Source: Phycisphaerae bacterium (lineage in GTDB: Bacteria > Planctomycetota > Phycisphaerae > UBA1845). Taken from it: a stretch of 64,000 bases of DNA. Shown here piece after piece: positions 46,731 to 64,000 of this stretch (positions within the stretch are counted from its first letter, which is position 1; each line of letters starts with the position of its first letter). Location: NCBI GenBank assembly GCA_963666835.2, contig CAXXGO010000005.1, forward strand, positions 244,222 to 308,221. Direction: 5' to 3'. The position numbers and the translations under genes were made by a program. The notes beneath the pieces are model-generated. The model ran no database searches. It had not been told where the DNA came from and was given only the letters and a program-made list of their open reading frames with translations.

Positions 46731-46812
46731 CCTCGTTCTCCTTACCTGAGCCCGCCCCACCCGAGCCCGCCCTTTCAAGGGCGGCGGTGGGGGGTCTCCT
46801 TTGACCGTGCCC

Positions 46813-47337: not shown

Positions 47338-47945
47338 TACCCCGCCACCATCTCGTGATAGATGCTGTCGATCTCCTCCGCGTCCGCCTCACTGATCCCG
47401 ACAAACTCCAGCCCCTCCTGGTGTACTTCTCGGGCCAAGAAGAACAGCGGCCCGGTGCCATAACCGAGTTCGTTCTCCGGGTCGATCAACACTCCGCCGC
47501 CGCTCCTGCTGGGCAAACGCACCAGGATCTCGTGGTTGGGGTCCAGATCCCGCGGCCACAATGCGTCACGTTTCAGGGCGTCCACCAGCGGAACCGCCAG
47601 ACACTTCAGCGGCGGCTTGGGCCGGATCGTTCCTCCGAACTGCCGCTGGGCCGCGTACGGCACATTGGTGCCCACCTCGACGCTCCCGGCACTCAGCTCG
47701 AACATGCTATCCCCGCTCCCCGCCTGCCCGGCCGCTCCCACGTGCAGCGACGCCGTCAGCCGCCCGCTCCGTACTCCGCCCTCGCTCATCGCCAGCCCCC
47801 GCACCAGCCGATCCTGGGCGGCTCCCATCAGGTACACCCCCAGCGCCACCAGCACCGGCCGCAGATCCCGATGGGTGTCGGCCCGCGTCTCAAACGCGTC
47901 GACGTCCCCGGTAACCTGCCATCGAGTTGTCAGGGCCAATCCCAT
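47337..47945 (-). CDS. Phage virion morphogenesis protein (Mu gpG-like)
   Basis: SGRLTASL, VGTNVPYAAQRQFGGTI, FVGIS. Confidence 0.85.
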   Translation of the reverse strand: MGLALTTRWQVTGDVDAFETRADTHRDLRPVLVALGVYLMGAAQDRLVRGLAMSEGGVRSGRLTASLHVGAAGQAGSGDSMFELSAGSVEVGTNVPYAAQRQFGGTIRPKPPLKCLAVPLVDALKRDALWPRDLDPNHEILVRLPSRSGGGVLIDPENELGYGTGPLFFLAREVHQEGLEFVGISEADAEEIDSIYHEMVAG

Positions 47946-47950
47946 TGGGC

Positions 47951-48370
47951 CTAATCCATCAGTCTGCTGTCCGACCCTACGCTAATGAGCGGGTCGTCGG
48001 CCGTCGTCGCCGCCGGGGTCACGGCCGCGGGCAATACCACCTCTCCGCCGGCCGCCTTTTCCAGCCACGCGACCGCGTCCTCGTGCCGTTGCCGCACGTC
48101 CTTGTCCACCGGCGTCCGCCGAGCACACAACGTGTACTCCGCCAGGTCCAGGGTCAGCGCCTTGAGCACCACGCCCGCGTCCGCATGGGTGACCACATCC
48201 ACCGGCGTGGCATACCGCCGCCCCAGCCACCGATCGATCAAGGCCTCGGCGGCCGTCCGCGCTTCGGTCACCACCGCCGCATCGGGGGTCGTCCCCGTAT
48301 CGGTGGTTAGCTGGACGGCCGCCGTGGTCCCGACCCGCGCAATCAGCTCATCGTTGCTTGCGTAGCTCAT
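47951..48370 (-). CDS. Head-tail adaptor (Mu gp36 / DUF1320-like)
   Basis: MSYAS..EL, IDRWLGRRYATPV, DLAEYTL, DAVAWLEK. Confidence 0.88.
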   Translation of the reverse strand: MSYASNDELIARVGTTAAVQLTTDTGTTPDAAVVTEARTAAEALIDRWLGRRYATPVDVVTHADAGVVLKALTLDLAEYTLCARRTPVDKDVRQRHEDAVAWLEKAAGGEVVLPAAVTPAATTADDPLISVGSDSRLMD

Positions 48371-48614
48371 CGCGCCGGTTCTTCCGCAGCTTAGTAATCT
48401 CCGCCACCGCCGCGTCCATCACGCGCTCGGTCGGCACTTCCGCCGACAGGTCCAGCACCTCGCGCAGCCGGTCCTCTCCGGTCAGCGTCGGTGTGGGGCG
48501 GCTAAGCCCGTGCCCCTTCCCGGCCCCGACCATGGCCGGCGGCACAATCGGCGACGCCGGAGTCTCAGCCGCCTCCGGCGCCGACTCCGCGGCCTTACGA
48601 TCCTTCTTACTCAT
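48348..48614 (-). CDS. Small phage head-region protein
   Basis: AGGAG RBS; between capsid and gp36. Confidence 0.65.
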   Translation of the reverse strand: MSKKDRKAAESAPEAAETPASPIVPPAMVGAGKGHGLSRPTPTLTGEDRLREVLDLSAEVPTERVMDAAVAEITKLRKNRRDELRKQR

Positions 48615-48661
48615 CGCAGTCTCCTAAACGTCAGGTGCGTGGCATCTCAGCCGCCGCAGGT

Positions 48662-49606
48662 CTAGGCCAGGTCCACGCTGATCGCGTGCATCCACTGCCC
48701 GTACGTCATCCGGTAACGGGCCCGCACGCCGAACAGGTACTTCTCGCGCATGAACTCCTCTTCGCTGCCGGACTCGATCGCCCGCCACTCCAGCGGCTCG
48801 CGGTTCTGGCAGATGAACGGCCGCACGGCCGCGTCGGTCTTGAGCACGAAGAACTTGCTCAGGTCGGTCAGCTCCGGGAACGGCAACACCTTCACCGGTC
48901 CGCCGATCACCGGCTGCACGGTCGTGCTGTTGATCGTGGTCGCGTTGAGCGCGTCGACGTAGACCTGGGCCTGCACCGCCGGGCACGCTACCGCCAGCCC
49001 GGTCGGCCGGATCCGCAGCGGCTCCCCCTGATCGTCGACAAACGTCGCCAGGGCGCCGACCGCCTGGGAGAATGCCAGCCGTACCGTGGGGATGCTCGGG
49101 GCGTCCGGGGTGTCCGGCTCATCCGGCAGAACCGCGCTGATGTCCATCGTCAGCTTGTTGCTCTGGGCTCCCGAGGCGCCGCTCTCGTGGTCCGTGGCAA
49201 AGAATGTGTGACCGTCGTATGCGTTGTATCCGCTCGTGGCTCCGTTAGCCAGCAGCAAGCCCAGCAGATAGTCCTTGTGCGTCGCGGCCCGCTCGGCCAG
49301 CTCCTGCACGCGGATGCGAATCTGTCCGGTCTGATCGTCGCTGATCTCGTCCCGATCGACCTCCAGCGTGGCCTCGTACTTGAGGTTCTCGACCGAGTAA
49401 GATTCAGCCCGCAGCCCCTTGGCCAGTCGGCCGGTTCCCCACTCGCGCACCTGCGGCACCGACCCCAACCAGCGGTACGTCTCGCTGTCCTTATTGGATT
49501 CGATCGGCGTGGCCAACATCTCGTGGTAGGCCACTTCCGCTCGCAGTCGCTCAAAGAACGTAGCCTTGAGGCCCTCAACATTCAGCCCTAAATCCTTGAT
49601 GGGCAT
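48662..49606 (-). CDS. Major capsid protein (Mu gpT-like)
   Basis: ETYRWLG.VPQVREW.G.R, YEATLEVDRDEISDD, YDGHTFFATDH, KYLFGVRAR..YGQW. Confidence 0.95.
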   Translation of the reverse strand: MPIKDLGLNVEGLKATFFERLRAEVAYHEMLATPIESNKDSETYRWLGSVPQVREWGTGRLAKGLRAESYSVENLKYEATLEVDRDEISDDQTGQIRIRVQELAERAATHKDYLLGLLLANGATSGYNAYDGHTFFATDHESGASGAQSNKLTMDISAVLPDEPDTPDAPSIPTVRLAFSQAVGALATFVDDQGEPLRIRPTGLAVACPAVQAQVYVDALNATTINSTTVQPVIGGPVKVLPFPELTDLSKFFVLKTDAAVRPFICQNREPLEWRAIESGSEEEFMREKYLFGVRARYRMTYGQWMHAISVDLA

Positions 49607-49681
49607 GGTAGGTTCTCCTTCCGTGGAGTTTGTCGTTTCAGTTCGCTTAAGTCCTGCCTTCGGCGTCTTCGTCAGTTGCGC

Positions 49682-50089
49682 CTACGGCGTCTTGTTCAGG
49701 GTTTCCAGCCGCAGGAGGATGCTCCCGCTCGCCGGCACGTCCGCGCAATAGCCCACAAACGAGTTGTCCGTGGACGTGAACGTCAGCGTATCGTCCGCCG
49801 ACGCATATACCGGGTCGTCAATGTTGGTGATTGCCGCTCCGGATAGGGCGTGTTCGAAGTCGCCGATCGTAAACACCCGCAACGACTTGTCCCCGGCCGA
49901 TCCGCTGCTGTTGTCGCACTCTTCGTACGCGATCCCCAAGAAGGTATCGCCCGCCACCAGCGGCCGGGCATACCCGCCGCTGTGTCCGACCAACGCCCCC
50001 TTGTAGATGTGGGCGCTCGCCGCCGCCTTGTACGTCCGCAGTTCCTGGTCGACGTACCGATTCACTTCCCTGTTGGCTGTCAGTGCCAT
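49682..50089 (-). CDS. Head decoration/cement protein
   Basis: IYKGALVG, FLGIA, VYASADDTLT; between protease and capsid. Confidence 0.8.
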   Translation of the reverse strand: MALTANREVNRYVDQELRTYKAAASAHIYKGALVGHSGGYARPLVAGDTFLGIAYEECDNSSGSAGDKSLRVFTIGDFEHALSGAAITNIDDPVYASADDTLTFTSTDNSFVGYCADVPASGSILLRLETLNKTP

Positions 50090-50218
50090 AATCCTGTCCT
50101 TTCTTCCTGGGTGGCATGGGCTAACTTGTTAGCCCGTGTTCTACCCGCCGTGTGTCTCCCGTGTCCCACCCCCCCCTTACCCGAGCCCGGCCTTTCAAGG
50201 CCGGCGGCAGTGGGGGGT

Positions 50219-51397
50219 TCAAGCGACCCCCGCCAGCTCCTCCTCCTTCGCTACGTCCTGCCCCGCCTCCTGCAGCCGCAGGTTGACGAGCGCCGTCTTG
50301 TTGGTCAGCTTGCCCAGGCTCTCGTCCGCGTCGAAGTCGCGGGCCGCGTTGGCGATAATCTCCGCCCGTCCCGCCGGTTTGTTGAAGCCCGCTTCCGGGT
50401 TGACGACCCGCCCGGCCGGCGGCAGGGCCGCCACCCGCTGATCCAGGATCACCTGGGCGTCCTTCGGGTCGCGGTCATAGGCCCGGCAGATCACCGCATA
50501 GTCCTCCTTGCGGTCCTCCGTGTTCGGGTCGATCACCCCCTTGGCGATGTAGGGTTGCATGAAGTCCGCCCGTTCCTTGGCCACCATGCGTTCCTTCATC
50601 GCGGCCAGTTCCTTGGCCAACTGCTCGGACCCGCCCGCGGCCGTCTTGGTCGCGTTAATCGCCAGCGTCACCGCCTCGGCATCCGCGTCGCCGCTCAGCC
50701 CCAGGGCCGTGCGGGCCGACGCCGCCACCTTCTCCTCTTCGCCCTTGTCTGCGCCTCCGCCGTCACTGCCGCTGCCCTTGAGCTTGCGGACCGCCTCCAG
50801 AATCGCCCCGAACAGGGCCCCGTCGTCGTCACCGTCCTCCACCCCGAGCACTTCCGCGATCCGCGCCAGATACCTGGTCGGGTCCACTCCTGCCGGTTCG
50901 CCTGCCATTGCTTTGGTCTCCTTGTTGTTGTCCGTCGCGGCCAAGGCATCCATCCGTGGTATGGCCGGCCGGTTGGTTAGGGCCGCCGAGTGCAGCCGCA
51001 GAATCCGTTTAGTGCGCCGGTCGGCTATGACGACCGGCGACAAGTACTTGTACGCCCCGCTACGAATGGCGCTCCTGCCCGACTCCGTCCACTCCACGTC
51101 GCCCAGCATCCCCTCACCCGCCGCGTACCGGATCGCCTTGATCCAGCCCGCGGCCGGGGCTTGTCCGTTGGGCGCTGCATACTCGCCCCCCAGCGTCTGA
51201 TGTTCGAAGTCGATGGGCACGTCCACCCCGTGGTCCGCCATCGCCTTGGCTGCTGCTGCCACCGCGTCGGCATCGATCACCCATCTTCCCGCCAACGATT
51301 CCACGTTCCCATCCGGCGACAGTACCACCGTGCTGACCGCCTCCTCCGCCGCCGACTTATTCACCAGTACCCGCAGGTTCAGCGTCTCAGTCTGCAT
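50219..51397 (-). CDS. Prohead protease/scaffold (Mu gp32/I-like)
   Basis: PIDFEHQT, APAAGWI, VEWT, YKYLSPV, SAALTNRPA. Confidence 0.95.
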   Translation of the reverse strand: MQTETLNLRVLVNKSAAEEAVSTVVLSPDGNVESLAGRWVIDADAVAAAAKAMADHGVDVPIDFEHQTLGGEYAAPNGQAPAAGWIKAIRYAAGEGMLGDVEWTESGRSAIRSGAYKYLSPVVIADRRTKRILRLHSAALTNRPAIPRMDALAATDNNKETKAMAGEPAGVDPTRYLARIAEVLGVEDGDDDGALFGAILEAVRKLKGSGSDGGGADKGEEEKVAASARTALGLSGDADAEAVTLAINATKTAAGGSEQLAKELAAMKERMVAKERADFMQPYIAKGVIDPNTEDRKEDYAVICRAYDRDPKDAQVILDQRVAALPPAGRVVNPEAGFNKPAGRAEIIANAARDFDADESLGKLTNKTALVNLRLQEAGQDVAKEEELAGVA

Positions 51398-52532
51398 CCG
51401 TTATCTCCCGAGCCACTGCTTGCAGCTCCGCATCCAGCTTTCTCAGATCGTGCTTCGTCGCATCGAATCCGTCGCGATCAAATGCAAACGCGGGGTGGGG
51501 GCTTATTCGCACGTTCTGACCCCCACGCCCGCGCGTCCGCGTTACTCTTCCCCCCCGATACGTCCACACCGGCAGTCTCAACTTGGTTACCTGCCGCGCG
51601 GTTAACGCCCTGAAAAAGCACCGGCAGTTCCACTCCCAGGGCGGTGTAAAGACCACCCAGAACGGATCGTCCCAGGCAAACACCTTCCCGTGCAGGGCCG
51701 CGTGCGTGTCACGCACCGCATTGACTCCGCCCTTGCCGTTGCCCACCGTCAGGTACTGCCGATAGGCAAACACTCCGGCAATCGCCGGATCGTCCAGGAC
51801 GCGCTTGCGGGCGACGTTGTAGGCCCCTAAGACGTTCTGCCGATACGTCAGTCGCAGTCGGGCCAACGACGGCCGCGGTATCCCGGCACGGTCGAACAGG
51901 TCCAGCAGTTGCCGCCGCACATCGCGGTAGGGGGTCCCGTCCGCAATCGCCTTGTGGACCACATCCCGCGCCCGCTGCACGAGTTTCACCTTGTGCAACC
52001 CCGCGAGCCGAAACGCCCGCGCCCGATTCTCCGCACTCAAGTTGTTGAACTGGGCGTCTGGTAGCGGCGTCTTCTGCGCAAAGAATCTGGCCGCCTCCCG
52101 GTGGCTCTTGGGCTTAAAGTCCATTACCGACAACGCCACGAGCTTTGTGCGATCTCTTTCGCCGTCGGACCCAATCGCAATCACCTCACCGCCCCTCCCC
52201 GAGCCCGGCCTTTCAAGGCCGGCGGCAATCCCCGCGGCTCCCACCGTCGCCGCCCCGACTCCCGCCGCCATCGTGAGGCACTCCGCCAGGTTGGTGGCCA
52301 GGCTCGTGGCATCCATCTCGGTCACCAGACTCGCGTTCAGTTGCTTCAGCAGCCGCGCCCGGTCGCGCTTGTCGTTGCCGGTCTCGCGCGCGTCTTTGAT
52401 TACGGCCACCAGCGGCCCGCTCAGCTCGCGGCGATAGCTGCGTCCCACCTTGGCCAGCGCTCGCGCCGCCAGGTTAGTCCACACCTGCCGCCGGTTCCCG
52501 ATTAAGCCCGTCATGACGTCCCGCTGCCGCAT
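51387..52532 (-). CDS. Minor head protein (Mu gp30/F-like)
   Basis: RAFRLAG, VRDTHAALHGKVF..DDPFW...PPWEWNCRC. Confidence 0.92.
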   Translation of the reverse strand: MRQRDVMTGLIGNRRQVWTNLAARALAKVGRSYRRELSGPLVAVIKDARETGNDKRDRARLLKQLNASLVTEMDATSLATNLAECLTMAAGVGAATVGAAGIAAGLERPGSGRGGEVIAIGSDGERDRTKLVALSVMDFKPKSHREAARFFAQKTPLPDAQFNNLSAENRARAFRLAGLHKVKLVQRARDVVHKAIADGTPYRDVRRQLLDLFDRAGIPRPSLARLRLTYRQNVLGAYNVARKRVLDDPAIAGVFAYRQYLTVGNGKGGVNAVRDTHAALHGKVFAWDDPFWVVFTPPWEWNCRCFFRALTARQVTKLRLPVWTYRGGRVTRTRGRGGQNVRISPHPAFAFDRDGFDATKHDLRKLDAELQAVAREITDAD

Positions 52533-53821
52533 CAGACGTCACCCTCCATCGTGTCCGCAAACGGATCCGGCGCCGGCTCCAGAATCTCCTCGCCTTCCTG
52601 CGGCTCGGGTATGCCGAGCGTCGCGTACGCGTACGCTTTGGGTATGGCCACCCCGGCCGCTTGGGCCTTGGCGAACAGGTCCGCCGCCGCCGTTCGATCG
52701 ATTACCTCGGGCTTCACCCGCCGGAAGTGGGGCAGGGGCACATCGCGATAGAACCGGGCCCGGCACATCGGCTCGAATATCTGCTTGCGCACCGTGGCCG
52801 CCTCCGCCGCCAGGTCGTCGTCGCGCAGGTCCTCGCGGACTTCGTTCTGCACGCTCGCCGCCGCGTGGGTCCCCGTCCCTCCGGTGGTATCCGCCACCAG
52901 GTTCCCGCCCAGCCACAGCTTGGCCTTGGCCCGGTCACACGCCGCCATCAGGGCCTCGTACGGGGCGGTGCCACTGCGCTGGCTCGACTCGATCATCTCC
53001 ACGTTTACGGCTTGCGAGAACACCCCCCACGCTCGCGCCCCCAGGTGTTTCATCCAGAGGGCCAGCTCGCGTTTTTCCTCGGTGGTCGCGGTCGGTTGAT
53101 ATCGCGCGACCCGCACCGGCATCCCGAAGATCTCGACGTATTGCGACCAGTTCATTATCCCCATGTGCCCGACCAGATAGGGCAGCAGGGCGGCCCGGGC
53201 GATCGCCGGTCGCAGTGGTTGATACAGGTTCTTCGTCGGCGAGTGGACCACCCACTTCGGCCCGACGGCCGCGATCCCGAGCCGCTCTTCGGCGGTCATT
53301 ACCCGGATAACTCCCGGCTCGCGGGCATCCATCCGCAGCCGATCGACCGGCACCGGGTTAAGCTCGACTATCCGGCTGCCGTCCCACACCAACTCGACCA
53401 CCGCCAGGTTATCTCCGATCGCCCGGGCCAGGTGCTTGAGTCCCGGCCCGAACGTCTCGATCGTCGCCAGTTGCCCGCGTACGTATTCCGCCGCGTCATC
53501 GGCCAGGGCCTGATCGGCTCCCTCTTCCACTTCGCTCGCGCTGATCACCTCGAACTCAAGTCCGGTGAGCGCTCCCCGTCGTGTGTTGGACACCGAGAAC
53601 AGGGTCGCATCCTCTTCGACGTCGGCATAGAGCTGCAGCCCCATGGCCAGGTTCCCGGCGTCGGCCGCCTCGATCGTGCTGCGTATCTTTGTCACCGTGA
53701 GCGATCGGGTCAGGTATTCGGCCAGCCCATCCACCGTCAGATCCGGCACCACCAACCGCCCGGGGCTCGGCGGCCGCCACCACTGCCGCACCGTGTCGAC
53801 TATCCGCGACGTAAAACTCAC
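52532..53821 (-). CDS. Portal protein (Mu gp29 / DUF935-like)
   Basis: ADAGN, WSQYVEIFGMPVRVARY, KLWLGGNL, GTHAAASVQNEVREDL; GTGA overlap with terminase stop. Confidence 0.93.
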   Translation of the reverse strand: MSFTSRIVDTVRQWWRPPSPGRLVVPDLTVDGLAEYLTRSLTVTKIRSTIEAADAGNLAMGLQLYADVEEDATLFSVSNTRRGALTGLEFEVISASEVEEGADQALADDAAEYVRGQLATIETFGPGLKHLARAIGDNLAVVELVWDGSRIVELNPVPVDRLRMDAREPGVIRVMTAEERLGIAAVGPKWVVHSPTKNLYQPLRPAIARAALLPYLVGHMGIMNWSQYVEIFGMPVRVARYQPTATTEEKRELALWMKHLGARAWGVFSQAVNVEMIESSQRSGTAPYEALMAACDRAKAKLWLGGNLVADTTGGTGTHAAASVQNEVREDLRDDDLAAEAATVRKQIFEPMCRARFYRDVPLPHFRRVKPEVIDRTAAADLFAKAQAAGVAIPKAYAYATLGIPEPQEGEEILEPAPDPFADTMEGDV

Positions 53822-55155
53822 CACGCCCCCTCCGCAAAGCACAACTCGTCCCCGAACATCGCCTCCACCGGCCCCACGTTGTCCGCCGCCACGAAGACCG
53901 CCAGGGCCAGCGCCCAGAACCTATCCGCGTGCGAGCCTTCCTTGCGGGTCGCCCGCAGCCGCACGTGTCCGTCAATCGTGACGCTCTTCTCGACGCTGTG
54001 CAGGTCCTGCCGGATCAGCCGATCGACCGGTATGGTCAGCAGTTGCCCTTCCATCTTCACCCGCAGCTTGGCCCCCAGGGCCTCTTTCACGTTGGCCGAG
54101 AACGTGTGCGGCTCCACCCGATTGGCCCCGAAGGCGAAGACCAGGTCCTCCGCCAGTTGCATCCCCAGCCCGGAATTGTCGATCGCACACTTGCGCACCG
54201 CCCGGCATTTGAGCACTTTCGAAAGCGTTTCGAACTGCTCTCGAAACGGCTTCGCTTTCAGTTCGATCAGCCCCAGCGTGCGCAGTTGTTCGCCCACCGC
54301 CTCCAGGGCCCAGATCACCGTCAAGTCGTGGTGCCGGCCGATGTCGACCCCGACCAGCACGTCCCCCTTGTGCTCCGCCAGCTCCTTAAGATCGAGCGTC
54401 CGCGGGCACGCTTCGTCCTCGCAGGCCCGGATCATGTCGAGCGTGATAAACGCCGACGCCTCATCGACGAACTCGCAGAGAAACTCCTGGCGATAGAGCA
54501 GCTCATCGCCCATCGCCTCGCGCAGTTCCTCGACGTCAATGCCTGTCAGGCCCTGCTCTACCGCGTCGTTGATCGTCAGCGTGTTGTGGGCGAACTGGCT
54601 GTTGTCGGCCAGCTCATAGAACTTGTTCAACTTGCCGCGTGGGGTGGAGGCCACATCCAGCTCCCCGCCGCCGCGCATGACTGACGGGAACATCGCCCCC
54701 CAGATCTCCCGGTCGTACGCGTGCATCGCGAACTCATCGAGGAACACATCCCCGGTGAATCCCCGAGCCGTCTCCGGGTTCGCCGGCAGCCCGATGATCC
54801 GGATTCCTGCTTCCGGCAGATCAATCTCGTACTGATTGTACTTGGCTCCGTCGAACATCCCCGCCTCGCGCTCGGAGTACTTGAAGGCCAGATCCAGCCC
54901 CTGGCAGTGTTGTTTGGCTTTCATGATCACTTCGCGGCTCTGGCGTCCGCCGGCCGATAGGATCAACTGGTTGCGTTTGCGGGCGATGCCCCGCACGATC
55001 CGCCGAAAGGTCAGCCCGAAGCTCTTACCTGTCTGCCGCGACCAGCAATGCCACCCGAAACGTGCGTCACTCAACACCACCTCGCGCTGGTAGGGCAGCA
55101 GCACGTCGTTCAGGATCATGGTGAGCGGATCGACAACTCGCACAGGCTCAGCCAT
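53818..55155 (-). CDS. Terminase large subunit (Mu gp28-like)
   Basis: LLPYQ, SRQTGKS, LPANPETARG, FLDEFA, STPRG, QEFLCEF, GVDIGR, HADRFWALALA. Confidence 0.96.
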   Translation of the reverse strand: MAEPVRVVDPLTMILNDVLLPYQREVVLSDARFGWHCWSRQTGKSFGLTFRRIVRGIARKRNQLILSAGGRQSREVIMKAKQHCQGLDLAFKYSEREAGMFDGAKYNQYEIDLPEAGIRIIGLPANPETARGFTGDVFLDEFAMHAYDREIWGAMFPSVMRGGGELDVASTPRGKLNKFYELADNSQFAHNTLTINDAVEQGLTGIDVEELREAMGDELLYRQEFLCEFVDEASAFITLDMIRACEDEACPRTLDLKELAEHKGDVLVGVDIGRHHDLTVIWALEAVGEQLRTLGLIELKAKPFREQFETLSKVLKCRAVRKCAIDNSGLGMQLAEDLVFAFGANRVEPHTFSANVKEALGAKLRVKMEGQLLTIPVDRLIRQDLHSVEKSVTIDGHVRLRATRKEGSHADRFWALALAVFVAADNVGPVEAMFGDELCFAEGAW

Positions 55156-55633
55156 TGCCGTCCCCCTTCGTCGCGTTGTAGTGCTCCAACAGCTCCGTCA
55201 TCACCGCCCCCGGATCCAACGTCACCTTGGCCGCCTCCTCGCGTTCACGTTGGGCCTCCGCCTCTTCGTGCTTTGCCTTCAGTTCCAGCATCCGGCCCAC
55301 AAACCGATCAAACATCGCCGCAGTGCGCAGCAACTTCGTGTCGTCACTGAGGGCCTGCTCGATACACATCCGCAGCAGGTCCAGCACCTTCGGCCCCAGC
55401 TCCTCCGCCCCGCCCGCTAACATCTCCGCGAACCGCGTCAAAGGCGCCAGCATTACGCGGTTCTTGTACTTCTTCCCAAGCGCTTGCAGCGACCGCCGCT
55501 TGCTCTCGGGTATGCCCAGCGCCCGCATCACCGCGCTCGGCTGCCACCCCTCGTAGAACAGCTCGTTCGCGCGATCCCAGGTCTCTACCCCCAGCGGTTT
55601 TGCCCAACGCGGAATGTCTGCGGCCTTGGCCAT
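55148..55633 (-). CDS. Putative terminase small subunit (Mu gp27 position)
   Basis: N-terminal HTH-like segment, helical; immediately upstream of the large terminase. Confidence 0.6.
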   Translation of the reverse strand: MAKAADIPRWAKPLGVETWDRANELFYEGWQPSAVMRALGIPESKRRSLQALGKKYKNRVMLAPLTRFAEMLAGGAEELGPKVLDLLRMCIEQALSDDTKLLRTAAMFDRFVGRMLELKAKHEEAEAQREREEAAKVTLDPGAVMTELLEHYNATKGDGNG

Positions 55634-55636
55634 CGT

Positions 55637-55942
55637 TTACGGCTCCAACGCCGGATCCACGTTGATCCGGTTAGCGATCTCGTTACCGGTTGCGGTCAGC
55701 TTGTAGAGTCGCCGCGACCACTGCTGGAACCTCTTCTCGTTCGTCCACTCGACGTACCCCTTATCGATCAGGTACGTCAGATCGCACTTGACGCACTCTT
55801 CGTCGGGCAGTTGCAGATGCAGCAGGGCCATGCAGATCGATTCGAACCCGAACGGGCCGATGTGGTACATCGTTTTCAGGGCTCGCAGAATCTCGCGTCG
55901 CGCCTGCTTGATCATCGCCGCCTTGGCCTCTTCTGCATTCAT
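55637..55942 (-). CDS. Mu gp26-like winged-helix protein
   Basis: RREILRAL...DLTYLIDKGYV...KLTATG.E. Confidence 0.8.
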   Translation of the reverse strand: MNAEEAKAAMIKQARREILRALKTMYHIGPFGFESICMALLHLQLPDEECVKCDLTYLIDKGYVEWTNEKRFQQWSRRLYKLTATGNEIANRINVDPALEP

Positions 55943-56304
55943 TCCGGCGCCTCCGTTTTTCGCTCGATCGCGTTGGCCACCCGGTTCAGCGATCCGCTAA
56001 TCCCCAAGGTTGCGTCTAGCTTCCCGGCCATCTCCCGGACCAACTCGCGCGTGGTATCCAGGCTGTGTTGTTGCGACGTCACCACCCGCACCCAGTCCGC
56101 GTGCGACACCTTGCCTTGCTCCACGGCTCTCAGGCGCGCCTCTTGGTTTTCCATGTGCGTCTTGTGCCCATCCAGCCGCTGGCTGGTGGTCCGCTGATAG
56201 TCCCGAACATTCGCGGCCAGGGCTCGCAGATACAGTCCCACCAGCCCCAACGGCAGCCCCACAATCGCCACCAACAGCCCGTAATGCCCCAGCGTCAGTG
56301 TCAC
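55939..56304 (-). CDS. Mu gp25-like membrane-anchored coiled-coil protein
   Basis: N-terminal TM then coiled coil; position. Confidence 0.7.
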   Translation of the reverse strand: MTLTLGHYGLLVAIVGLPLGLVGLYLRALAANVRDYQRTTSQRLDGHKTHMENQEARLRAVEQGKVSHADWVRVVTSQQHSLDTTRELVREMAGKLDATLGISGSLNRVANAIERKTEAPE

Positions 56305-56561
56305 GCCCGCGTCTCCTCTCCCGGGTCCTCTCCGCCCGTAGCGCAGGCATCCAGCCCGCCTCCCCCCGCATCCGAGCCCGCCCTTTCAAGGGCGGCGGCG
56401 GCAGCAGTGGGGCTGGTCTGCCCCTTCGGTTTCACCCGCGCAATCACGACAATCCCGCGGCCGTCCGGGTCCTGCTCATCGGGGAAAATGTCGAGTTCCA
56501 GCCCGGGAAACTCGCTCCGCACCACGTGGGCCAGCTCCTTGCACAGCAGCATTTTCGTCAC
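56301..56561 (-). CDS. Small phage protein with repeat-derived C terminus
   Basis: Stop overlaps next start; last third is encoded by two palindromic elements. Confidence 0.5.
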   Translation of the reverse strand: MTKMLLCKELAHVVRSEFPGLELDIFPDEQDPDGRGIVVIARVKPKGQTSPTAAAAALERAGSDAGGGGLDACATGGEDPGEETRA

Positions 56562-56805
56562 GGGTCACCGCCATCATCCACGGCCCCACCTCCCGCACGC
56601 GTAGAGCCCGATCCATCGACCGCAGCAGCGCCAGCGCCACCCTTCTCCCCGCGCTGTCCGAGCCCGCCCTTTCAAGGGCGGCGGCAGCAGTCGGGGCGGG
56701 CTGTTCCACCCGGCCGATCCGGCACCCGCACCCCGTCTCTGCCGGGGCTCCCCCGCCCGCCCCCGGCCCCAGCGGCACCTGTTTTTCCAGCCGTTGGCCC
56801 GTCAT
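56476..56805 (-). CDS. Small phage ORF containing an in-frame palindromic element
   Basis: ATGA overlap at 56802-56805; 3' end uncertain. Confidence 0.4.
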   Translation of the reverse strand: MTGQRLEKQVPLGPGAGGGAPAETGCGCRIGRVEQPAPTAAAALERAGSDSAGRRVALALLRSMDRALRVREVGPWMMAVTRDENAAVQGAGPRGAERVSRAGTRHFPR

Positions 56806-57323
56806 CGATCCCACTCCCTCGGCAGGTCGAACAGCAGCCCCTGCCCGTTCTGCCGCTCCGCCACGGCCCGGTTCACCCGGGCCATCCGCACGAACCGAAA
56901 CACCGTCTTGGCGTTCTCGGCCGCCTTGAACTCCGCCCACTCCGCCGCGGACCGGGCCAGCCAGTACCCGTGCCCGTCCGAGCAGAACTTCAGGCCCATG
57001 TGGTCTCGCCCGAACCGGACCGCCTCGCGAATCCGTCGTCGGATCGACTCGTGCTTTCCGTCGAGCCCCAGTTCCCGGCCCAGCGTGATCCCCAACACCG
57101 GCTCGGCCACCTCGCGGATCCGCGGCTCGATCCACTCCGCCCGTTCGCGTCTGACCTCCTCAGTGGTCTTGCCCATCGCATCGCTCGCCCCGTCCCGCAC
57201 CACGTCCACGTGCACGGTGCGAATCTCGTGCAGCCATGCCGCCAGCGCGGCACAGCCCGGCAGTGCCAGCATACCGGCACATGCCCAAACCCCTAGAAAT
57301 ACCGCCCCTTGTCGGTGTGCCAT
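56802..57323 (-). CDS. Winged-helix-like phage protein; the N-terminal 49 aa may be a separate small lipoprotein
   Basis: RRIREAV...GLKFCSDGHGYWLA; LPGC lipobox-like motif upstream of internal MGKTT. Confidence 0.65.
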   Translation of the reverse strand: MAHRQGAVFLGVWACAGMLALPGCAALAAWLHEIRTVHVDVVRDGASDAMGKTTEEVRRERAEWIEPRIREVAEPVLGITLGRELGLDGKHESIRRRIREAVRFGRDHMGLKFCSDGHGYWLARSAAEWAEFKAAENAKTVFRFVRMARVNRAVAERQNGQGLLFDLPREWDR

Positions 57324-57359
57324 ACCATGTCACTCCTTGCGTTTGGTGGTTAATGGCAG

Positions 57360-57720
57360 CGTCGGCGGTGGGCGTCCTTGCCGCCCTCCTGGCACCGCCG
57401 CCGCCGCTGCTTCGTCGTCGTAGCGCAGGCCGGGTGGCCCATCGCTTTAGCGGTGGGGGGACTCGAATGCCCAACTTGTTGGCCCGTGTCCTGCCGCGCT
57501 TCAATTATGGAGAGAGCCCGCGGGCCGCGGGCCGGCGTTTGGGATGCCCGCGGACTCGTTGGAAGTTCTGCGGCGGCGCGGGTCCGGTCGCCCCGATCCC
57601 CGCGCCGCCTTCTCAAAGGAGTTTTTCTGTGCTTCCCCCCTTACCAAGGGGGGGCTCGGGGGGGTCTGCTCACCCGAGCCCGGCATATCCGAGCCGTCCC
57701 TTTCAAGGGGCGCGGCGGCA
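57360..57720. repeat. Dense cluster of palindromic elements from at least five families
   Basis: GTAGCGCAGGC (57420), GGGTGGCCCATCGCTTTAGCGGTGGG (57432), CCAACTTGTTGGCCCGTG (57471), CCCCCCTTACCAAGGGGGG (~57635), CCCTTTCAAGGG (~57698). Confidence 0.8.
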
Positions 57721-58106
57721 TCCCCGTTTCGCGGCGCGCAAACCAAGGGCCAGCGTAAGTGTTCGCACCCACGCCGACCCTGGCCGGAGGGGAAAGAAGC
57801 CGCTCGCGGTTCCGGTCGCGGCCGCCTTCCCGTTCGTATTGCCTGTACCTACAGTAACCACCATCCCTGGTGTTCTCCTTGTTGTCGCGTTCCGTCGCGC
57901 AACAAAAAAGGCCAAGAGCGCAGACTGCCCGTCATGCGGGCCACTCTGCGCTCCCGGCCTGTCAACTGTCGGTCGGGTTGCCCTGTTGGCTTGGCTTAAG
58001 CCTCAGGCTCTTTCAATGTGCGTGTCGCTTCGCGGCGGTCTCACTCACCGCTAAGTTTTTCGGTCGCTCGGCGGCAGTCTCACTCCCCGCCAAGCTGCGG
58101 CAGCCC

Positions 58107-58136
58107 CTTCTAGCCGCCCCCCCAAACCCCTGTCAA
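58107..58136 (-). promoter_or_regulatory. Candidate sigma70 promoter for late operon
   Basis: Minus strand TTGACA-N18-TAGAAG upstream of the late genes. Confidence 0.45.
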
Positions 58137-58227
58137 GAACAAAATCCAAACTTTCTCCCCCCGCTCCCCGAGCCCGCCCTTTCAAGGGCGGCGGCTTCCG
58201 TAGCACAGGCTTCCAGCCTGCCGAATG

Positions 58228-58770
58228 CTACGCCTCTTCTGCATCCTCGCCCTTGTCCCAATGCGGCGGATGGGTCTTCAGACTGGTGTCCTCCCATCTC
58301 TTGAACATCTTCGCGAGGTTGCGTTCGCTGACGAACAGGCTCGCCAGCAACATCCCAACTGCTGCCCCCGCAAGCGCGATGCACATGTAGATGGCCCAAC
58401 ACTCCTTCCTCAACCCGAACGTGAGTTGCGCCACCGCCGCCACCAAGCACAGCAGCACCGCCAGGTACAACAGCTTGCTCAGCCGCGCCAGCGTTCCATA
58501 GTGTGTCGCTTGCGGGTTTACCGCTCGCCGCCGTTGCATCCGCTTGATGTACGCCTCACTGTCGTACAACCCTTCCTTCATCGTCACCACGATAAAGGTC
58601 TTCAGCGACAGCAAGAACCCCGCCACCGTCAGAAACGCCACGAAGAACCCCATCCGCAGGTCCTCGCCGTACACCTCCCGAAGCTTGTCCTCTTCGATCA
58701 GGCTGGCCGCCCACCCCGCGCCTGCCCCGCAGGCCACGGTCACCAAGATAACGAGTCCCCACGCCTTCAT
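58228..58770 (-). CDS. Multi-pass membrane protein (cargo gene 2)
   Basis: About 4 TM segments; GFLLSLKTFIVV...LYDS..Y loop; ATGA overlap with upstream gene. Confidence 0.85.
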   Translation of the reverse strand: MKAWGLVILVTVACGAGAGWAASLIEEDKLREVYGEDLRMGFFVAFLTVAGFLLSLKTFIVVTMKEGLYDSEAYIKRMQRRRAVNPQATHYGTLARLSKLLYLAVLLCLVAAVAQLTFGLRKECWAIYMCIALAGAAVGMLLASLFVSERNLAKMFKRWEDTSLKTHPPHWDKGEDAEEA

Positions 58771-59604
58771 GACACCTGCAGGAGCGGATGGTCCTTGTAT
58801 TCCAGTATCGCCCGCATCAACCTGCTCTCTACGAACTTGTCTATCCTTACCGTTTCCACCATTTCATCATAGTCGAACCGCTCGAAAATTTCCTTATTAT
58901 CTCCAAGAACGTGCGTGGTTTCCAGATCGTCCGCGTCGATCCCCGTCACACTCACCCGTCTCGGCTTGTCCCGCTTATACAACCGCCTGACTGTCGTCCA
59001 TACTCGCGGGGTCTTCGCGCCCTTGCAGAACGTCCACTCCACCTTCTTGGAACGCAGGTCTCCCTCGGCGAAACCGTCATCGTCTGCATCGACCACCTCA
59101 ATGGTCTCTCGATACGCTTTCAGTCTAACGTAATGCGCTTCGAGCTGCTTCATCCCCATCTGCGTCTGCATCGGGTTGCACTTCGCGTACTTCCGCAGCT
59201 TCTCCTCTCGCTTTTCGCTCATCTCTTCCGCATACTCAGTGAATCGCGATTTCAACAGCCCGCCGAAATACCGCAGCCCCGTCCCACTTCCCTGGTACGC
59301 CCGTGAACACGAACGCACCGTTGTCATGTCGCACAAAGAAGTTGTTGGCCTCCGAGAGGCCCTCTGCCGTGACAACCTGCAGCGTCGCCGGCTCCCCTTC
59401 CTTCCTCTGCAACTGCAGCATGTTCTTCCTGTTCGTCGAAAAACAGTTGAGTCCCTTGGTAATGCCCTCCTCCACCTTCACGTGGATGAACCGCGATCCC
59501 TTCTCCATCGTGTCTTTGTTCCGCGTCTCCATCCACCTCCAGAACGCTTTCTGCTCCGCCCAATCGGGCAGCTCAAACCGGCCGGCCAACACCTTGATTT
59601 TCAT
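58767..59604 (-). CDS. Soluble ~278-aa cargo protein, apparent frameshift at ~59300
   Basis: ORFs 59236-59604 and 58767-59375 join as ...GAFVFTAYQGSG... if one G is removed. Confidence 0.72.
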
Positions 59605-59641
59605 GCGGGTCTCTCGCTTTCGGTTTCCGACTTGTCGTTAT

Positions 59642-59902
59642 CTACGACGCTGTTATTTTCTCTGTCTCAGCCCCCGACTCCCGGTCGCACCAAACCCCGC
59701 AAGGGGCTCCCCCCGCCCTCATCAACTCCGCCACCAGCCGCTCCGCGCCCGCCGGATCAAACGCTCCCGTCCGCTCCACGATCCTCCGCATCGCCCGCCG
59801 CAGCCGCTCCGTCTGGTTCACTGTCCGGCGTGCCGGCTCAATCGCCAATATCCGTGCCGACCGATCCCAATCGTCCCCGCAAGTGTACTCGTGCGTGACC
59901 AT
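59642..59902 (-). CDS. Small phage hypothetical protein
   Basis: GGAG RBS, co-oriented. Confidence 0.5.
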   Translation of the reverse strand: MVTHEYTCGDDWDRSARILAIEPARRTVNQTERLRRAMRRIVERTGAFDPAGAERLVAELMRAGGAPCGVWCDRESGAETEKITAS

Positions 59903-59916
59903 GCTCCGCCATTCAC

Positions 59917-60378
59917 CTAATTAGGTGAACGCTCCTCCAACTGTCTACTGATCCGCTCCAGCAGTCGCACCCCCTTCGCTTGGGTGGCCCACATCCCTGC
60001 CACGCCGCGCATCATTGCACCGCTCACGTAGAACATCCCCAACCCCATCAACCCGACAATGACCCACACTGCCTGCCCTGCTATTGCACCCAGGACCACA
60101 CCCCCCAGCATCCAAAGGACTCCCAGAGCCACGAGTTCCTTGTAGAGCCGCGACAGAAGGACGATCCCGCGTTCCATTGACCGCTCCAGATCTGCCATCC
60201 GTTCCCCTTCGCGTGCTCGCGCCGCGTGCCCCCTTGCCTCCGCGGCACTCATCCGCGGTACAGGCTCTTTCACACGGGTTTGTGTGGGCGTCGCCGCCGG
60301 CAGCTTCGCCCCGCACACCACGCACACCTTCGCCCCATCCACATTTGGCTCCCCGCATTCCTTGCATACAATCGCCAT
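59917..60378 (-). CDS. Zinc-ribbon membrane protein
   Basis: CKECG...CVVCG, two TM helices, GGAGG RBS. Confidence 0.8.
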   Translation of the reverse strand: MAIVCKECGEPNVDGAKVCVVCGAKLPAATPTQTRVKEPVPRMSAAEARGHAARAREGERMADLERSMERGIVLLSRLYKELVALGVLWMLGGVVLGAIAGQAVWVIVGLMGLGMFYVSGAMMRGVAGMWATQAKGVRLLERISRQLEERSPN

Positions 60379-60588
60379 CCCGACCTCCGCCCAAAATAGT
60401 CCGTTTTTTGTCTTGACTAACCCTAACAGATGCCGTACATTTCAAGTGATGGTGGTCGGTCACACCATGCCAGCCGCACGCTGGGCCGGGGAAGGCCAAG
60501 GAATCGCCAGTCAAGGATGACGGCCCCGGCCCGTCAAGAAACGCTCGCGTCCCGGACGTTCTGTCTGGACGCTTGGGGGGGAATCACC

Positions 60589-60798
60589 ATGGACCGAACG
60601 TCGCTTCCTCTGTCGTTCGAGCGTCATCGCGCCCTTCGCGATCTCGCCCGTGACGCGGCTGCTCTTCGTTTCGAGCATATTATGCGCCTTCGCGACGCTG
60701 CTGCCTTCTGGGCTTCTTTCCCTCTCGATGTGCCTGCGCAGCTGCCGTCACCTCCGCCGCCGCCCGGCGTCCCCGTTCCGTCTCGCACCAACTGTTGA
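60589..60798 (+). CDS. Small hypothetical protein (MDRTSLP...)
   Basis: G-rich RBS-like run upstream; helical sequence. Confidence 0.4.
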   Translation: MDRTSLPLSFERHRALRDLARDAAALRFEHIMRLRDAAAFWASFPLDVPAQLPSPPPPPGVPVPSRTNC

Positions 60799-61000
60799 CT
60801 TCCGCCCAACCCGCCTTCTTCTCGTAGACTGCCCCGAGAAGCGGCATTAGGGTCGCCACCTGCGATTTATCGAGCAACTGGAACGCGGCCAGCCCAGCCA
60901 TCGCCATCATCGTATTGGGGTATCCAACCCTCAAGACGTCCCATGCCTTCGCCACGTCCGGGGGCAGATTGATGTTGATCTGTTCGCTTGACTTCGCCAT
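60680..61000 (-). CDS. Candidate repressor, ribbon-helix-helix-like
   Basis: MAKSSEQININLPPDVAKAWD strand-helix pattern; divergent from early genes. Confidence 0.55.
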   Translation of the reverse strand: MAKSSEQININLPPDVAKAWDVLRVGYPNTMMAMAGLAAFQLLDKSQVATLMPLLGAVYEKKAGWAEVNSWCETERGRRAAAEVTAAAQAHREGKKPRRQQRREGA

Positions 61001-61071
61001 GCGTGAGAGTTTCCGAATATTCTTCCGGAAAACAACTTGCCTCCAACTCCTACGGCGTGTAGACTTCCTAC

Positions 61072-61254
61072 ATGGAAGCACCGAATGGCGAACAACTCGG
61101 CGTTTACGTCCACGTGCGGGAGAAAGCCCGCACGCGGCGATCCGGCAATATCACGCTCAATTGGCTGACTCAAGGCGAGGCGCTCGCTGCCCTCCGGGCC
61201 CGCGAACGAACGCGAGCAACGCCGGATCCAACGGCTGATCAATCCTGGGCGTAA
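61072..61254 (+). CDS. Small early phage protein
   Basis: First rightward ORF after the divergent junction. Confidence 0.45.
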   Translation: MEAPNGEQLGVYVHVREKARTRRSGNITLNWLTQGEALAALRARERTRATPDPTADQSWA

Positions 61255-61283
61255 GCCGCGAGCCAAGAAGCGAGGGGGCACTA

Positions 61284-61493
61284 ATGCGTAGTCGCTACGC
61301 CAACGCGCATCAACGCCGCAAGGGCGTAACCATCAAGGTCATCGATAACGAGTCGTCAGACTCCTTCGCTCCTCGCTCGTATTCGTTCACCGTTTCGGCC
61401 CCCCGGGGCTCGTTTGCTCGGGTGGTCGATGTCGTGGCCACCGCGGTGGCCGCCCACTGGTCCGGCACGGACCGGCCGGCCCGCCGCCCTTAG
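61284..61493 (+). CDS. Small early phage protein
   Basis: GAGG RBS. Confidence 0.55.
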   Translation: MRSRYANAHQRRKGVTIKVIDNESSDSFAPRSYSFTVSAPRGSFARVVDVVATAVAAHWSGTDRPARRP

Positions 61494-61752
61494 TGAGTCT
61501 CACGCCGCCGGGACCGGCCCGGCGGCTTTCAGCGTGTCGCCCGTCGTGGCGGCAGTGTGATAGCGGATTATTGCGATGTGTTTTGTTTCGATATTTGAGA
61601 ACCAAACCCGACGTAGGGCCGATGCCCTTTTCAGTCATCGCATAGCCGCCTTCACCTGCCGCCTCGCGGGCCACCCTTTGCCTTAAGCGTACCGCGTCGC
61701 TAGCCGGATGCTACCGACGTTCAGCCCGAAAAGTCGGCAGGGAGGCCGCCCC

Positions 61753-62280
61753 ATGGATTCTCGCATGAACGCCTGGCAGGACACTCTCTACGACCTGTGT
61801 TTCCAGCTTGACCTGGTCAATCCCAAGGCCATCGCTCACCGGCTGCATCGCGCCCGCAACTACCTCTCTGATGTATGCCGTCGCGACCGCGTCGACCCGA
61901 TCGCGATCTTCAACGAGATATTGAAGGACGCCGAGCCGCTGGCCGTCTCCGATCCTCGGCGTCACGCCCAGATCGGTACGGCTGTGTTCGGTTTGTTATG
62001 TTCCGGTACCCGCTGGTTTCCGGCCTACGTAGCTCCCGAGCCCGCCGCCTCCCCGACATCCTCGGCCGACTTCACCCGGCTCTGCGAGCACGCGGGCATC
62101 CTGTGTGAGGACCTCGGCGGGGTCGTCAAGAGTCTCGCCGCTATCGAGCGTGACGGTCAGTACAACGAGGCGGACGATGCCGAGATCAACGGGTTCCAGG
62201 TCAAGATGCAGCAACTAATCGCCCGCTTGCACGCCATCGGCGTAGACCTCCGCCGTCGCCGCCAGGAGTCCCCCTCATGA
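61753..62280 (+). CDS. Phage CII/YmfL-like regulatory protein
   Basis: GGAGG RBS; HTH-like KAIAHRLHRARNYLS; C-terminal helical hairpin with DGQYNEAD. Confidence 0.65.
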   Translation: MDSRMNAWQDTLYDLCFQLDLVNPKAIAHRLHRARNYLSDVCRRDRVDPIAIFNEILKDAEPLAVSDPRRHAQIGTAVFGLLCSGTRWFPAYVAPEPAASPTSSADFTRLCEHAGILCEDLGGVVKSLAAIERDGQYNEADDAEINGFQVKMQQLIARLHAIGVDLRRRRQESPS

Positions 62281-62657
62281 TCCCGATTCTCCCCGCCGTA
62301 GCGCAGGCTTCCAGCCTGCTTTTCGCCACCCACGTAGCGCAGGCATCCTGCCTGCCCAACTCCCCCCCTTACCTGAGCCCCCCCTTTCAAGGGGGGGATG
62401 CGGGGGTCTCTTCGATCTTGTTCTTCGCCGGCGTGCTGCTCGCGATCGGTTTCGGCATCTGCTACTTCTCCGCCGGCCTCCGCCAACGGACCCTCAGTTG
62501 TCATTGCGGCCGCGAGCAAACCCACAACGCGTTAACGCTCACCGACACAGACGCCGCCGAGATCACCGCGCGGCTCACGGCCCTCTGCCCCGTCTGCCGG
62601 GCTCAGGGCCGCGACATCGTTCCGACTAACCAAAGGGGGAGAAACCATGATTGCTGA
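62277..62657 (+). CDS. Membrane-anchored Zn-finger protein with repeat-derived N-terminal insert
   Basis: ATGA overlap; TM helix; CHC...CPVC. Confidence 0.65.
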   Translation: MIPILPAVAQASSLLFATHVAQASCLPNSPPYLSPPFQGGDAGVSSILFFAGVLLAIGFGICYFSAGLRQRTLSCHCGREQTHNALTLTDTDAAEITARLTALCPVCRAQGRDIVPTNQRGRNHDC

Positions 62658-62904
62658 TCATCAAGAGTGTCCGCATTGCGGTGGGGCGATCCCGCGCGAG
62701 CACTTCGCCCACGAAGACCAGCCCGGCACGGGCACCGCCATCACCTTGTTGTATTGCGCCCATTGTGGCTGGGGGGTTGAGACTCTCTGGCGGGTGACGG
62801 GCCAGAGTCACGCCGAGGACTTCTCGTTGGAGTTTCGGCGCGACCGCGACCCCGTCGCCCTCGGCCAGTTCCTGCAGAGGCTTCACGATCGCCGCGCCGC
62901 GTAA
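62647..62904 (+). CDS. Small Zn-finger protein
   Basis: CPHCG...CAHCG; GGAG RBS. Confidence 0.75.
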   Translation: MIADHQECPHCGGAIPREHFAHEDQPGTGTAITLLYCAHCGWGVETLWRVTGQSHAEDFSLEFRRDRDPVALGQFLQRLHDRRAA

Positions 62905-62915
62905 CGGATTGACTA

Positions 62916-64000
62916 ATGCCCCTGGCTCAGCCCCAACTTCGCGCGACTCACGCCCCGGCGGACTTCATCCCCATCGCCGAGGCCGCCGCGCTGTTGGACT
63001 GCTCGCTCCGCACACTGCAGCATCGGTGCAAGCACCAGCTCGCCGCTCGCGGCCGGGCCGAGCTACGCCCACCGCCCGACGGGGGCAAGCCGAGCTGGTG
63101 GATCCGCCGGGTGGCCGATCCCCGGCTCACCAAGACGCCCGACTCCGACACCCGGGAAACCCGCGCCCGCAAGGTCCTACTGGAGCACTACCCCGCCCAC
63201 CAGGTCGACCGCGCCTACCGCCGCGCCCACTGGCTCCGCCGCTGGCGTGACCTCTGCAACGGCACCGCCTCTCCCACCAAGCCGGGCAATGGGTGGCCCA
63301 TCGCTTCAGCGGTGGGGGACTCGAACCACCGTCTGCCATTACGCCCCACCGACCGCGACCTCGCCGCCCAAGTGGTGGCCGAAGCCAAACGCATCGAAGG
63401 GGAGTCCTTCAGAATCTCCCCGCGGTCCTTGCAGTCCTGGCACCGCACGTATAATGCCATCGATCCAACCACCGGCGCCATTCGCGGCGTCGGCGGTTTG
63501 GTGTCCAACTACCGCAGCTCGGGGCACGCCGTAGCTGCGGTTACTGGGACAGTCGGCGGCGCCGGTGGCGGGTGTCCTACCCCGACCTCCCGTAACCCGG
63601 CCGCCGTCGACTACTTCTACTCGCTGTATCACACTCAATCGAAACATTCGATCCGGGTCTGTCACGCCGCCACAACGCGTGAGGCCCGCTCCAACGGTTG
63701 GTCCTGGCCGACGCACTACAACGCCACGGTCAGATGGCTCCGCGAGTATGACAACCTCTCCATCACGTTTCTCGCCCGTGAAGGTCGCGACAAGTGGCAG
63801 CGGCGGTTCATGCCGTTTCTGGAGCAGGACTGGTCGCTGGTTCGTCCCGGCCAGTTCTACGTTGGCGACCACACCCAGTGTGATTTCTGGTGCCTGTACG
63901 GTGACAAGTTCATCCGGCCCTGGCTGACTGCGTGGCAGGACTGCGCCTCGCGTTGCATCGTCGGCTACCACCTCGGGCCCGCCCCGCATCAAGACAGCAT
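62916..64000 (+). CDS. MuA-like DDE transposase, 3' end beyond window
   Basis: Manual translation, open to window end: HTH IAEAAALLDCSLRTLQ, ISPRSLQSW, PGQFYVGDHTQCDFW, RPWLTAWQDCASRCIVGY. Confidence 0.92.
   Translation, partial: MPLAQPQLRATHAPADFIPIAEAAALLDCSLRTLQHRCKHQLAARGRAELRPPPDGGKPSWWIRRVADPRLTKTPDSDTRETRARKVLLEHYPAHQVDRAYRRAHWLRRWRDLCNGTASPTKPGNGWPIASAVGDSNHRLPLRPTDRDLAAQVVAEAKRIEGESFRISPRSLQSWHRTYNAIDPTTGAIRGVGGLVSNYRSSGHAVAAVTGTVGGAGGGCPTPTSRNPAAVDYFYSLYHTQSKHSIRVCHAATTREARSNGWSWPTHYNATVRWLREYDNLSITFLAREGRDKWQRRFMPFLEQDWSLVRPGQFYVGDHTQCDFWCLYGDKFIRPWLTAWQDCASRCIVGYHLGPAPHQDS

Follow-up and report, generated by a model that had tools for sequence, protein, structure and literature searches.

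Short host-type repeats lie predominantly on one strand of a Mu-like prophage and its relatives from Phycisphaerae

A stretch of 64,000 nucleotides from a Phycisphaerae genome (hereafter the window; contig CAXXGO010000005.1, positions 244,222 to 308,221, assembly GCA_963666835.2) ends in a Mu-like prophage at 33300..64000 (left edge approximate), with its late genes on the minus strand and its early genes on the plus strand, and with the contig end cutting it short. Here we report that this prophage and its close relatives carry short repeats of several classes, both hairpins and tandem arrays, predominantly on one strand of the phage. This clade-wide, multi-class, strand-polar repeat loading is the new aspect; in-frame repetitive extragenic palindromes (REPs) are already known. 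A first-pass annotation of the window had put forward in-frame insertion itself as an undescribed system, a claim that the literature has overtaken, as the relevant parts of two papers describe REPs in frame within genes (PMC3733652, PMC6006769).

Polarity, density and host match of the repeats

In the window prophage all ten repeat clusters stand on the plus strand, foot first, independent of gene direction (10/10; p 0.002). Five lie in reading frames and five are intergenic (46746, 50171, 57420, 57635, 58168). The latter, all on the plus strand, comprise a 5' part of family A, a full A and a degenerate arm of host family E (46746..46820), a family A copy after the protease gene (50171..50218), the 5' half of a family B copy joined to family C (57420..57467), family D with a 5' part of A and a full A (57635..57715), and A plus B (58168..58221). 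Every element named by the first-pass annotation was recovered at its place, for family A at 52199, 56372, 56658 and 62373, for family B at 56338, 62298 and 62334, and for family C at 63291 and 57432, and the repeat peptides are read in the frames it gave. Its copy of B in host DNA at 31470 was likewise found (31470..31491, plus strand), with another at 21386.

A similar polarity is seen across the clade. We fetched 197 loci with a transposase alignment, removed nine near-duplicates and a duplicate entry of L108 from the viral set, and counted repeats in close relatives plus the phage contig of a further genome (G024). The third-position skew of the transposase gene split the loci into 33 C-rich ones and 38 others (L102 and L103 being put among the others by hand), and 118 distant loci served as control; kin loci do not count as independent, and inheritance accounts for some arrays (L065, L078, L108). 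Twenty-one of the C-rich loci lean toward the transposase strand, one leans the opposite way and 11 are without lean. GTAG hairpins in these 33 related loci favor the transposase strand 36:7, as against 13:17 for a control foot, and the published class-3 repeat lies on that strand at all 19 of its occurrences in related phage loci (19:0). Arrays of the same unit in different loci agree in orientation 48:7 and 48:5 (permutation p 0.003 and 0.009) by a unit-by-unit test, used instead of an AYY rule for polarity under which near-palindromic heptamers are ambiguous (38:22, 14 ambiguous). Different repeat families occupy the same sites in related phages. In the host, its repeat families stand on both strands, stacks of co-oriented families also occur, and the B clusters of the contig that ends in the window (C5) are all on the plus strand (6/6).

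Heptamer arrays reach 2.32 per 10 kb in the C-rich loci, compared with 0.18 in the others and 0.12 in the distant control, and octamer arrays 1.30, compared with 0.09 and 0.03; compared with other Mu-like elements, array density is 13 to 40 times higher. In the three hosts where this was seen (G000, which is the window's own genome, G024 and G061) the repeat families of the phage match the host's own. G024 and its phage share a common heptamer and octamer (41:0 and 3:23 on the phage contig; 194 and 143 genome-wide) and are both without family B. There, 41 of the 194 heptamer matches sit on one 49-kb phage contig, on a single strand, and host PF05635 genes are flanked by heptamers and octamers found in the phage. 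G000 is without PF05635, and heptamer and octamer arrays are nearly absent from both this host and its phage.

Families B and C are host families of G000, with 168 and 96 copies genome-wide, and the B copy at 62298 has 10 exact genomic matches, that at 62334 has 13. The genome holds 20 A-type hairpins versus 0, 0 and 1 in three shuffles, and 8 of the 20 fall inside the 30.7-kb prophage, where 0.1 would be expected. Two A stems, the commonest ones (6 copies), are confined to the prophage, and the A pattern was found in one of 301 genomes, its own. These phage-only stems would be consistent with copying inside the phage or with acquisition in a previous host. They are the sole hint in favor of the first-pass proposal that the phage could ferry such elements between hosts, which does not stand as a finding.

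The related phages are under purifying selection. The ratio of nonsynonymous to synonymous substitution rates (dN/dS) is 0.05-0.43 in 12 of 14 related-phage gene pairs, the two remaining pairs, near-saturated ones of the B gene, giving 0.79 and 1.0. Of the 34 arrays that fall within 154 conserved gene copies, 33 lie in intact frames. The further idea that host palindromes are written into phage genes, with only frame-preserving events surviving, is upheld as to host-type sequence, kept frames and purifying selection. No writer carried by the phage was found: seven tblastn probes for a phage-encoded Y1, four-helix-bundle or GxxExxY protein had no match in 72 partial-genome loci (741 kb).

Coding insertions and their homologs

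All five coding insertions are genuine and preserve the frame, and each lies where an insertion costs little, in a linker between domains, in a variable loop or close to the end of a gene. In the MuA-like transposase (62916..64000, plus strand, incomplete at the contig end), family C lies in an insertion of ~22 codons within a variable loop (63291..63328, plus strand), and this loop has 41 residues compared with a mode of 19 among 62 transposases (alignment of 24). A conserved small membrane/zinc-finger early gene (62277..62657, plus strand), whose start overlaps the upstream stop, holds a B, B, A stack in an in-frame insertion (62298..62410, plus strand); its homologs begin directly at the hydrophobic helix, and the window copy is ~43 codons longer just after the start. 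The expectation that homologs would be without the repeat peptides is confirmed for the transposase loop and the start of gene 62277. The gp30/Mu F head protein (51387..52532, minus strand) unites two parts that most relatives encode separately. Here family A stands in frame in the linker (52199..52225, plus strand), and clean junctions are not definable because 36 of the 44 matches are proteins of 218-262 residues that span only the part after the peptide. Three full-length matches carry different linkers, and no close relative of gp30 was found in the viral contigs. The two parts of gp30 are separate genes in G024, with heptamers at the junction.

The remaining two insertions had been assigned to two small late open reading frames (ORFs), which are probably one gene (56805-56301, minus strand) with one counterpart gene in relatives; it overlaps its neighbors at both ends, by its start with the upstream stop and by its stop with the downstream start. 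A one-base assembly error probably accounts for the frame change near 56552: the T run there is one base shorter in one short-read contig of run X2, which comes from one study, possibly of the source sample, and none of the listed contigs of run X1 lies over 56552. A B plus A stack lies in the C-terminal extension (56338..56398, plus strand) and a family A copy in the N-terminal one (56658..56684, plus strand), both in frame, near the termini and outside the conserved core. The conserved relative has ~85 residues, and a profile of eight relatives (the frame of L070 being wrong) matches the downstream half (E 0.001); likeness of the upstream half to relatives is by eye only.

In a codon-model test, which misses terminal insertions, clusters well inside coding sequence made up 3/10 in the phage versus 7/644 in the host (Fisher p 0.0003), the latter figure comparing with 362/600 for random positions. 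At 52199, 56338-56398 and 56658 the spanning contigs of run X1 agree fully with the assembly. No joint in runs X1 and X2 cleanly removes an element to give a repeat-free allele, the listed joints having sides <40 nt, and related phages are too divergent for their indels to give clean junctions. Single-base differences from X2 contigs also occur at 57727, 59300 and 61199, of which 59300 is the junction of two overlapping ORFs (58767-59375 and 59236-59604).

Element identity, candidate mechanism and rival explanations

The elements are REP-type hairpins, GTAG-footed in family B, GTGG-footed in C and CCGAG-footed in A. In B and C the foot is followed by the hairpin, and both have many dispersed, mostly extragenic host copies, as GTAG-type REPs do. 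In family A a CCGAG foot is combined with a 7-bp stem that carries a TTCA loop; 98.4% of cells are paired, with a covariation of 0.739 (0/500 shuffles). With its CnGA-type foot, hairpin and 4-nt loop it resembles the class-3 TnpA-Y1 repeats, which are described around class-3 Y1 genes, mainly of Planctomycetes, in the sections of Quentin 2018 that treat them (PMC6006769). The host has a Y1 gene at C6:2.222 Mb (PF01797, 34.9 bits versus a cut-off of 23) around which four hairpins of A geometry, with other stems, stand inverted, and its protein reads THVH, WT and YVRDQ versus the tabulated class-3 NHVH, W[TA] and YVxxEQ. RAYT genes gave 11 matches in the host, 3 of them above the NF047646 cut-off. 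According to the pertinent passages of two reports, TnpA-REP acts on single-stranded DNA (ssDNA) and requires the REP strand with its 5' GTAG (PMC3333891; PMC6006769); in each of A, B and C the foot comes first on the plus strand. Within the window the phage copies stand singly or stacked, all in one orientation, and not as the inverted pairs of REP doublets forming hairpins (REPINs) or bacterial interspersed mosaic elements (BIMEs), while inverted REP pairs do occur in L078 and L108.

Two candidate sources were discarded, a DUF559 gene for families A and D, not found in G000 (92% complete), and GxxExxY (PF13366) for the octamers, found in one of five genomes and absent from the octamer-bearing G024 and G061. 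At two G024 loci (L241, C42:67.3 kb; L244, C54:92.5 kb) PF05635 four-helix-bundle genes are flanked by heptamer or octamer arrays, which at L241 are inverted around the gene in REPtron-like fashion. Two host RAYTs (L221, C1:1403 kb; L223, C6:345 kb) lie beside further repeat families, unseen in the prophage by eye.

The plus strand of the prophage is C-rich throughout, with a skew of -0.08 to -0.29 per 2 kb from 34 kb on. This skew is also present at third codon positions in 17 of 17 genes, in both directions, which suggests replication rather than transcription as its cause. A RecQ-family helicase is encoded in 14/14 C-rich loci versus 0/11 others (loci with at least 7 kb downstream), and in the repeat-rich phages it is mostly followed by a gene for a protein of 427 residues. 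The C-rich loci are full phages with the layout of the window prophage, whereas the other loci have a capsid gene and no terminase match within the fetched DNA. The sister Mu-like group, with opposite skew, without RecQ and with no terminase match in the fetched DNA, possibly represents transposable satellites.

On this basis we see about an even chance that host Y1 (HUH) transposases insert host REP-type hairpins into one phage strand predicted to be single-stranded, and that selection filters the outcome. One-directional phage replication would expose one strand as ssDNA, RecQ may take part in this exposure, and the putative inserting enzymes, Y1 proteins encoded by the host, would act on the exposed strand; selection likely retains copies at junctions, linkers, loops and termini. 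Heptamer and octamer arrays might enter through a parallel host process tied to the four-helix-bundle cassettes.

Several observations weigh against insertion by host Y1 enzymes into an exposed strand. Since the heptamer and octamer arrays are not hairpins, Y1 chemistry leaves them uncovered, and no cognate enzyme was found for B or C, the single RAYT near known families having 16 E, one B and one C around it. The leading strand is usually G-rich; if so here, the REP strand is opposite to that predicted by IS608-type integration. Families A to E are absent from three host regions of strong skew, and the opposite-skew sister elements keep their GTAG hairpins 6:0 on the transposase strand, so that skew alone does not explain the polarity. 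No phage-type RecQ was located for the window prophage, whose early operon is cut off by the contig end, and the RecQ split may reflect a single evolutionary event. A generic scan for CnGAG hairpins is without polarity (9:8), and B and C are mildly enriched in the prophage (B 4 versus 0.84 expected, p 0.011; C 2 versus 0.48, p 0.085). Host family E, the commonest with 680 copies, is represented in the phage by one fragment only, and fragmented assemblies drop host repeats and so inflate the phage share.

A possible, if doubtful, alternative is capture irrespective of family, in which a phage module of RecQ and the 427-residue gene would pick up, or template-switch onto, short single-stranded host fragments and also copy them from phage to phage. 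It would accommodate the one polarity of hairpins and unrelated-sequence tandem arrays, the prophage-only A stems and the single genome with the A pattern, and the distribution of RecQ, and at 46746 and 57674 partial 5' copies stand before full ones. Yet, as far as seen, what was captured is repeat families and no arbitrary host DNA, co-oriented stacks of families exist in the host too, and genome-wide counts of 5'-anchored truncation are mixed (for B, 27 5' halves versus 12 by chance and 16 3' halves versus 13; for C the reverse). In a related version, which we regard as rather unlikely, the clade's own RecQ-driven, strand-displacing replication would itself be a family-agnostic writer that takes up host REPs of three classes together with heptamer and octamer arrays, copies them between genes and carries them to new hosts; were this true, phage proteins would evolve via repeat-derived loops.

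That the repeats accumulated passively in decaying prophages of long residence, with the host replication fork setting their orientation, seems decidedly improbable. The uniform orientation of host B clusters on C5 and a remnant with broken frames that carries A and B (C3:731-732 kb) would agree with it, but Mu-type integration is expected in either orientation, and the repeats keep a constant orientation relative to the phage across many hosts. Purifying selection on the phage genes and the presence of the host families on both strands also speak against it. We give still less credence to the repeats being phage control elements (terminators, RNA stabilizers or operators) retained for function: although half of the clusters stand at gene junctions and the A stem covaries, orientation is independent of transcription direction, relatives carry unrelated repeats at the same sites, the sequences are identical to host families, and an Rfam search over 44000-64000 gave no match. 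An assembly artefact or mis-called ORFs would be the least credible of these explanations. Single-base differences from short-read contigs do occur (56552, 57727, 59300, 61199), and N-terminal insertions could stay untranslated with a later start codon, but the X1 contigs agree with the assembly over three of the coding insertions (52199, 56338-56398 and 56658), all four affected genes have homologs, and the pattern recurs in independent assemblies. Insertion by host Y1 enzymes, followed by selection, remains our preferred reading.

Known repeat systems and genomic setting

The nearest precedent is formed by the GTAG REPs and their RAYTs, which, in the portions of the reports that concern them, share the GTAG/GTGG foot, many host copies, host RAYTs and in-frame copies in tolerant regions (PMC3733652; Ton-Hoang 2012, PMC3333891). 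Intragenic in-frame GTAG and CGTC REPs, most often in Opitutus terrae of the Planctomycetes-Verrucomicrobia-Chlamydiae (PVC) superphylum, have been argued to form linkers or loops (Di Nocera 2013, PMC3733652), and in-frame REPs are also noted inside tnpA-REP genes (PMC6006769, in its relevant section). What differs from GTAG REPs and REPINs is that the present copies are phage-borne singlets and mixed stacks on one strand, with a higher coding share (3/10 versus 7/644 in the host). Family A has the foot, stem and 4-nt loop of class-3 TnpA-Y1 repeats, Planctomycete hosts and a host gene flanked by such hairpins, but its stem is perfect and of other sequence, and the host protein has THVH/YVRDQ, not NHVH/YVxxEQ (compared with the tabulated part of PMC6006769). 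The IS200/IS605 elements IS608 and ISDra2 are likewise strand-specific, with an orientation linked to replication (PMC6006769, in the passage on them), whereas the units here are non-autonomous, of 25-40 nt and of several families. Rickettsia palindromic elements (RPEs) likewise keep the reading frame of the genes that hold them (cited in PMC3733652), but have other sequences and lie in chromosomal genes, and the passages on them mention neither phages nor strand polarity.

The heptamer tandem repeats and small dispersed repeats that Elhai reportedly described in cyanobacteria in 2008 are said to include 7-nt arrays and nested small repeats; those reported here differ in that they occur in Phycisphaerae phages, are polar, and flank PF05635 genes of the host. 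Mu and B3-type transposable phages share MuA, MuB, a GemA-like protein and Mu-type head genes with this clade, the comparison with B3-type phages being one of general layout; the repeat-rich clade in contrast has RecQ and the 427-residue gene in its early operon, a strong uniform skew and the repeat load. Our literature search, which covered few subscription papers, returned no report of phage genomes loaded with REPs or heptamers, or of RecQ in transposable phages. A comparison of RecQ with a phage collection gave 48 records, and among the 25 listed none is labelled transposable.

As far as the relevant passages go, entry of REPs and short tandem repeats into new sites in vivo is still being argued from models (PMC3333891). 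A compact replicon that densely collects several repeat classes on one strand is both a directional record and a candidate substrate for direct assay, and it would make these phages a natural test bed for repeat spread. It also joins hairpin REPs and non-palindromic heptamer and octamer arrays under one strand rule, and points to a group of transposable phages with an added helicase module. REPIN transmission is held to be almost wholly vertical in the parts of the work that address it (Bertels and Rainey, 10.1101/2021.07.10.451892, PMC3116915); if ferrying were true, this near-exclusive vertical passage of REP populations would need qualifying.

The window prophage is Mu-like by its MuA-type DDE transposase and Mu-type head genes (phrog_310, 113, 328, 371 and 220), and PHROG matches were obtained for portal, terminase, protease, major head and transposase. 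Transposase relatives that bear names come mostly from Phycisphaerae or Planctomycetota assemblies. A tRNA-Val gene (33074-33147) adjoins the left edge, followed by a segment (33208-33510) ~80% like C1:867.9 kb and C3:719.1 kb. Two further partial Mu-type head clusters lie in G000 at C6:199-206 kb and C6:1569-1575 kb. At C3:729-736 kb (L239) is a region with many frame breaks, either a prophage remnant or the far end of the window prophage, in which a homolog of the 427-residue gene adjoins pentapeptide-repeat and TIR-like genes; at C3:731 kb this homolog carries A and B within its coding region, with the polarity of the prophage.

An example of the RecQ-family helicase and the 427-residue protein conserved in repeat-rich phages is L070:15415-18014. 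The latter had no match in Pfam, PHROG or NCBIfam; its first part is MuA N-terminal-like by eye and its middle has weak initiator-like look-alikes, the Atlas look-alikes gp59_N, Phg_2220_C and DnaB_2 scoring <0.9 and being leads only. In the sister group (L035, L037, L042, L043, L048, L049, L052, L097-L101, L109) a Mu gpT capsid gene stands close to the transposase, 1.5-6 kb upstream. Regions of strong skew that are free of families A to E are found in G000 at C1:660-700 kb, C1:895-930 kb, C6:2255-2300 kb and C4. Finally, in the host part of the window, positions 1-11200 hold long minus-strand genes made of many cysteine/aspartate-rich repeats of 36-57 nt, and positions 2127-5176 hold arrays of host family E together with a 291-nt duplication.

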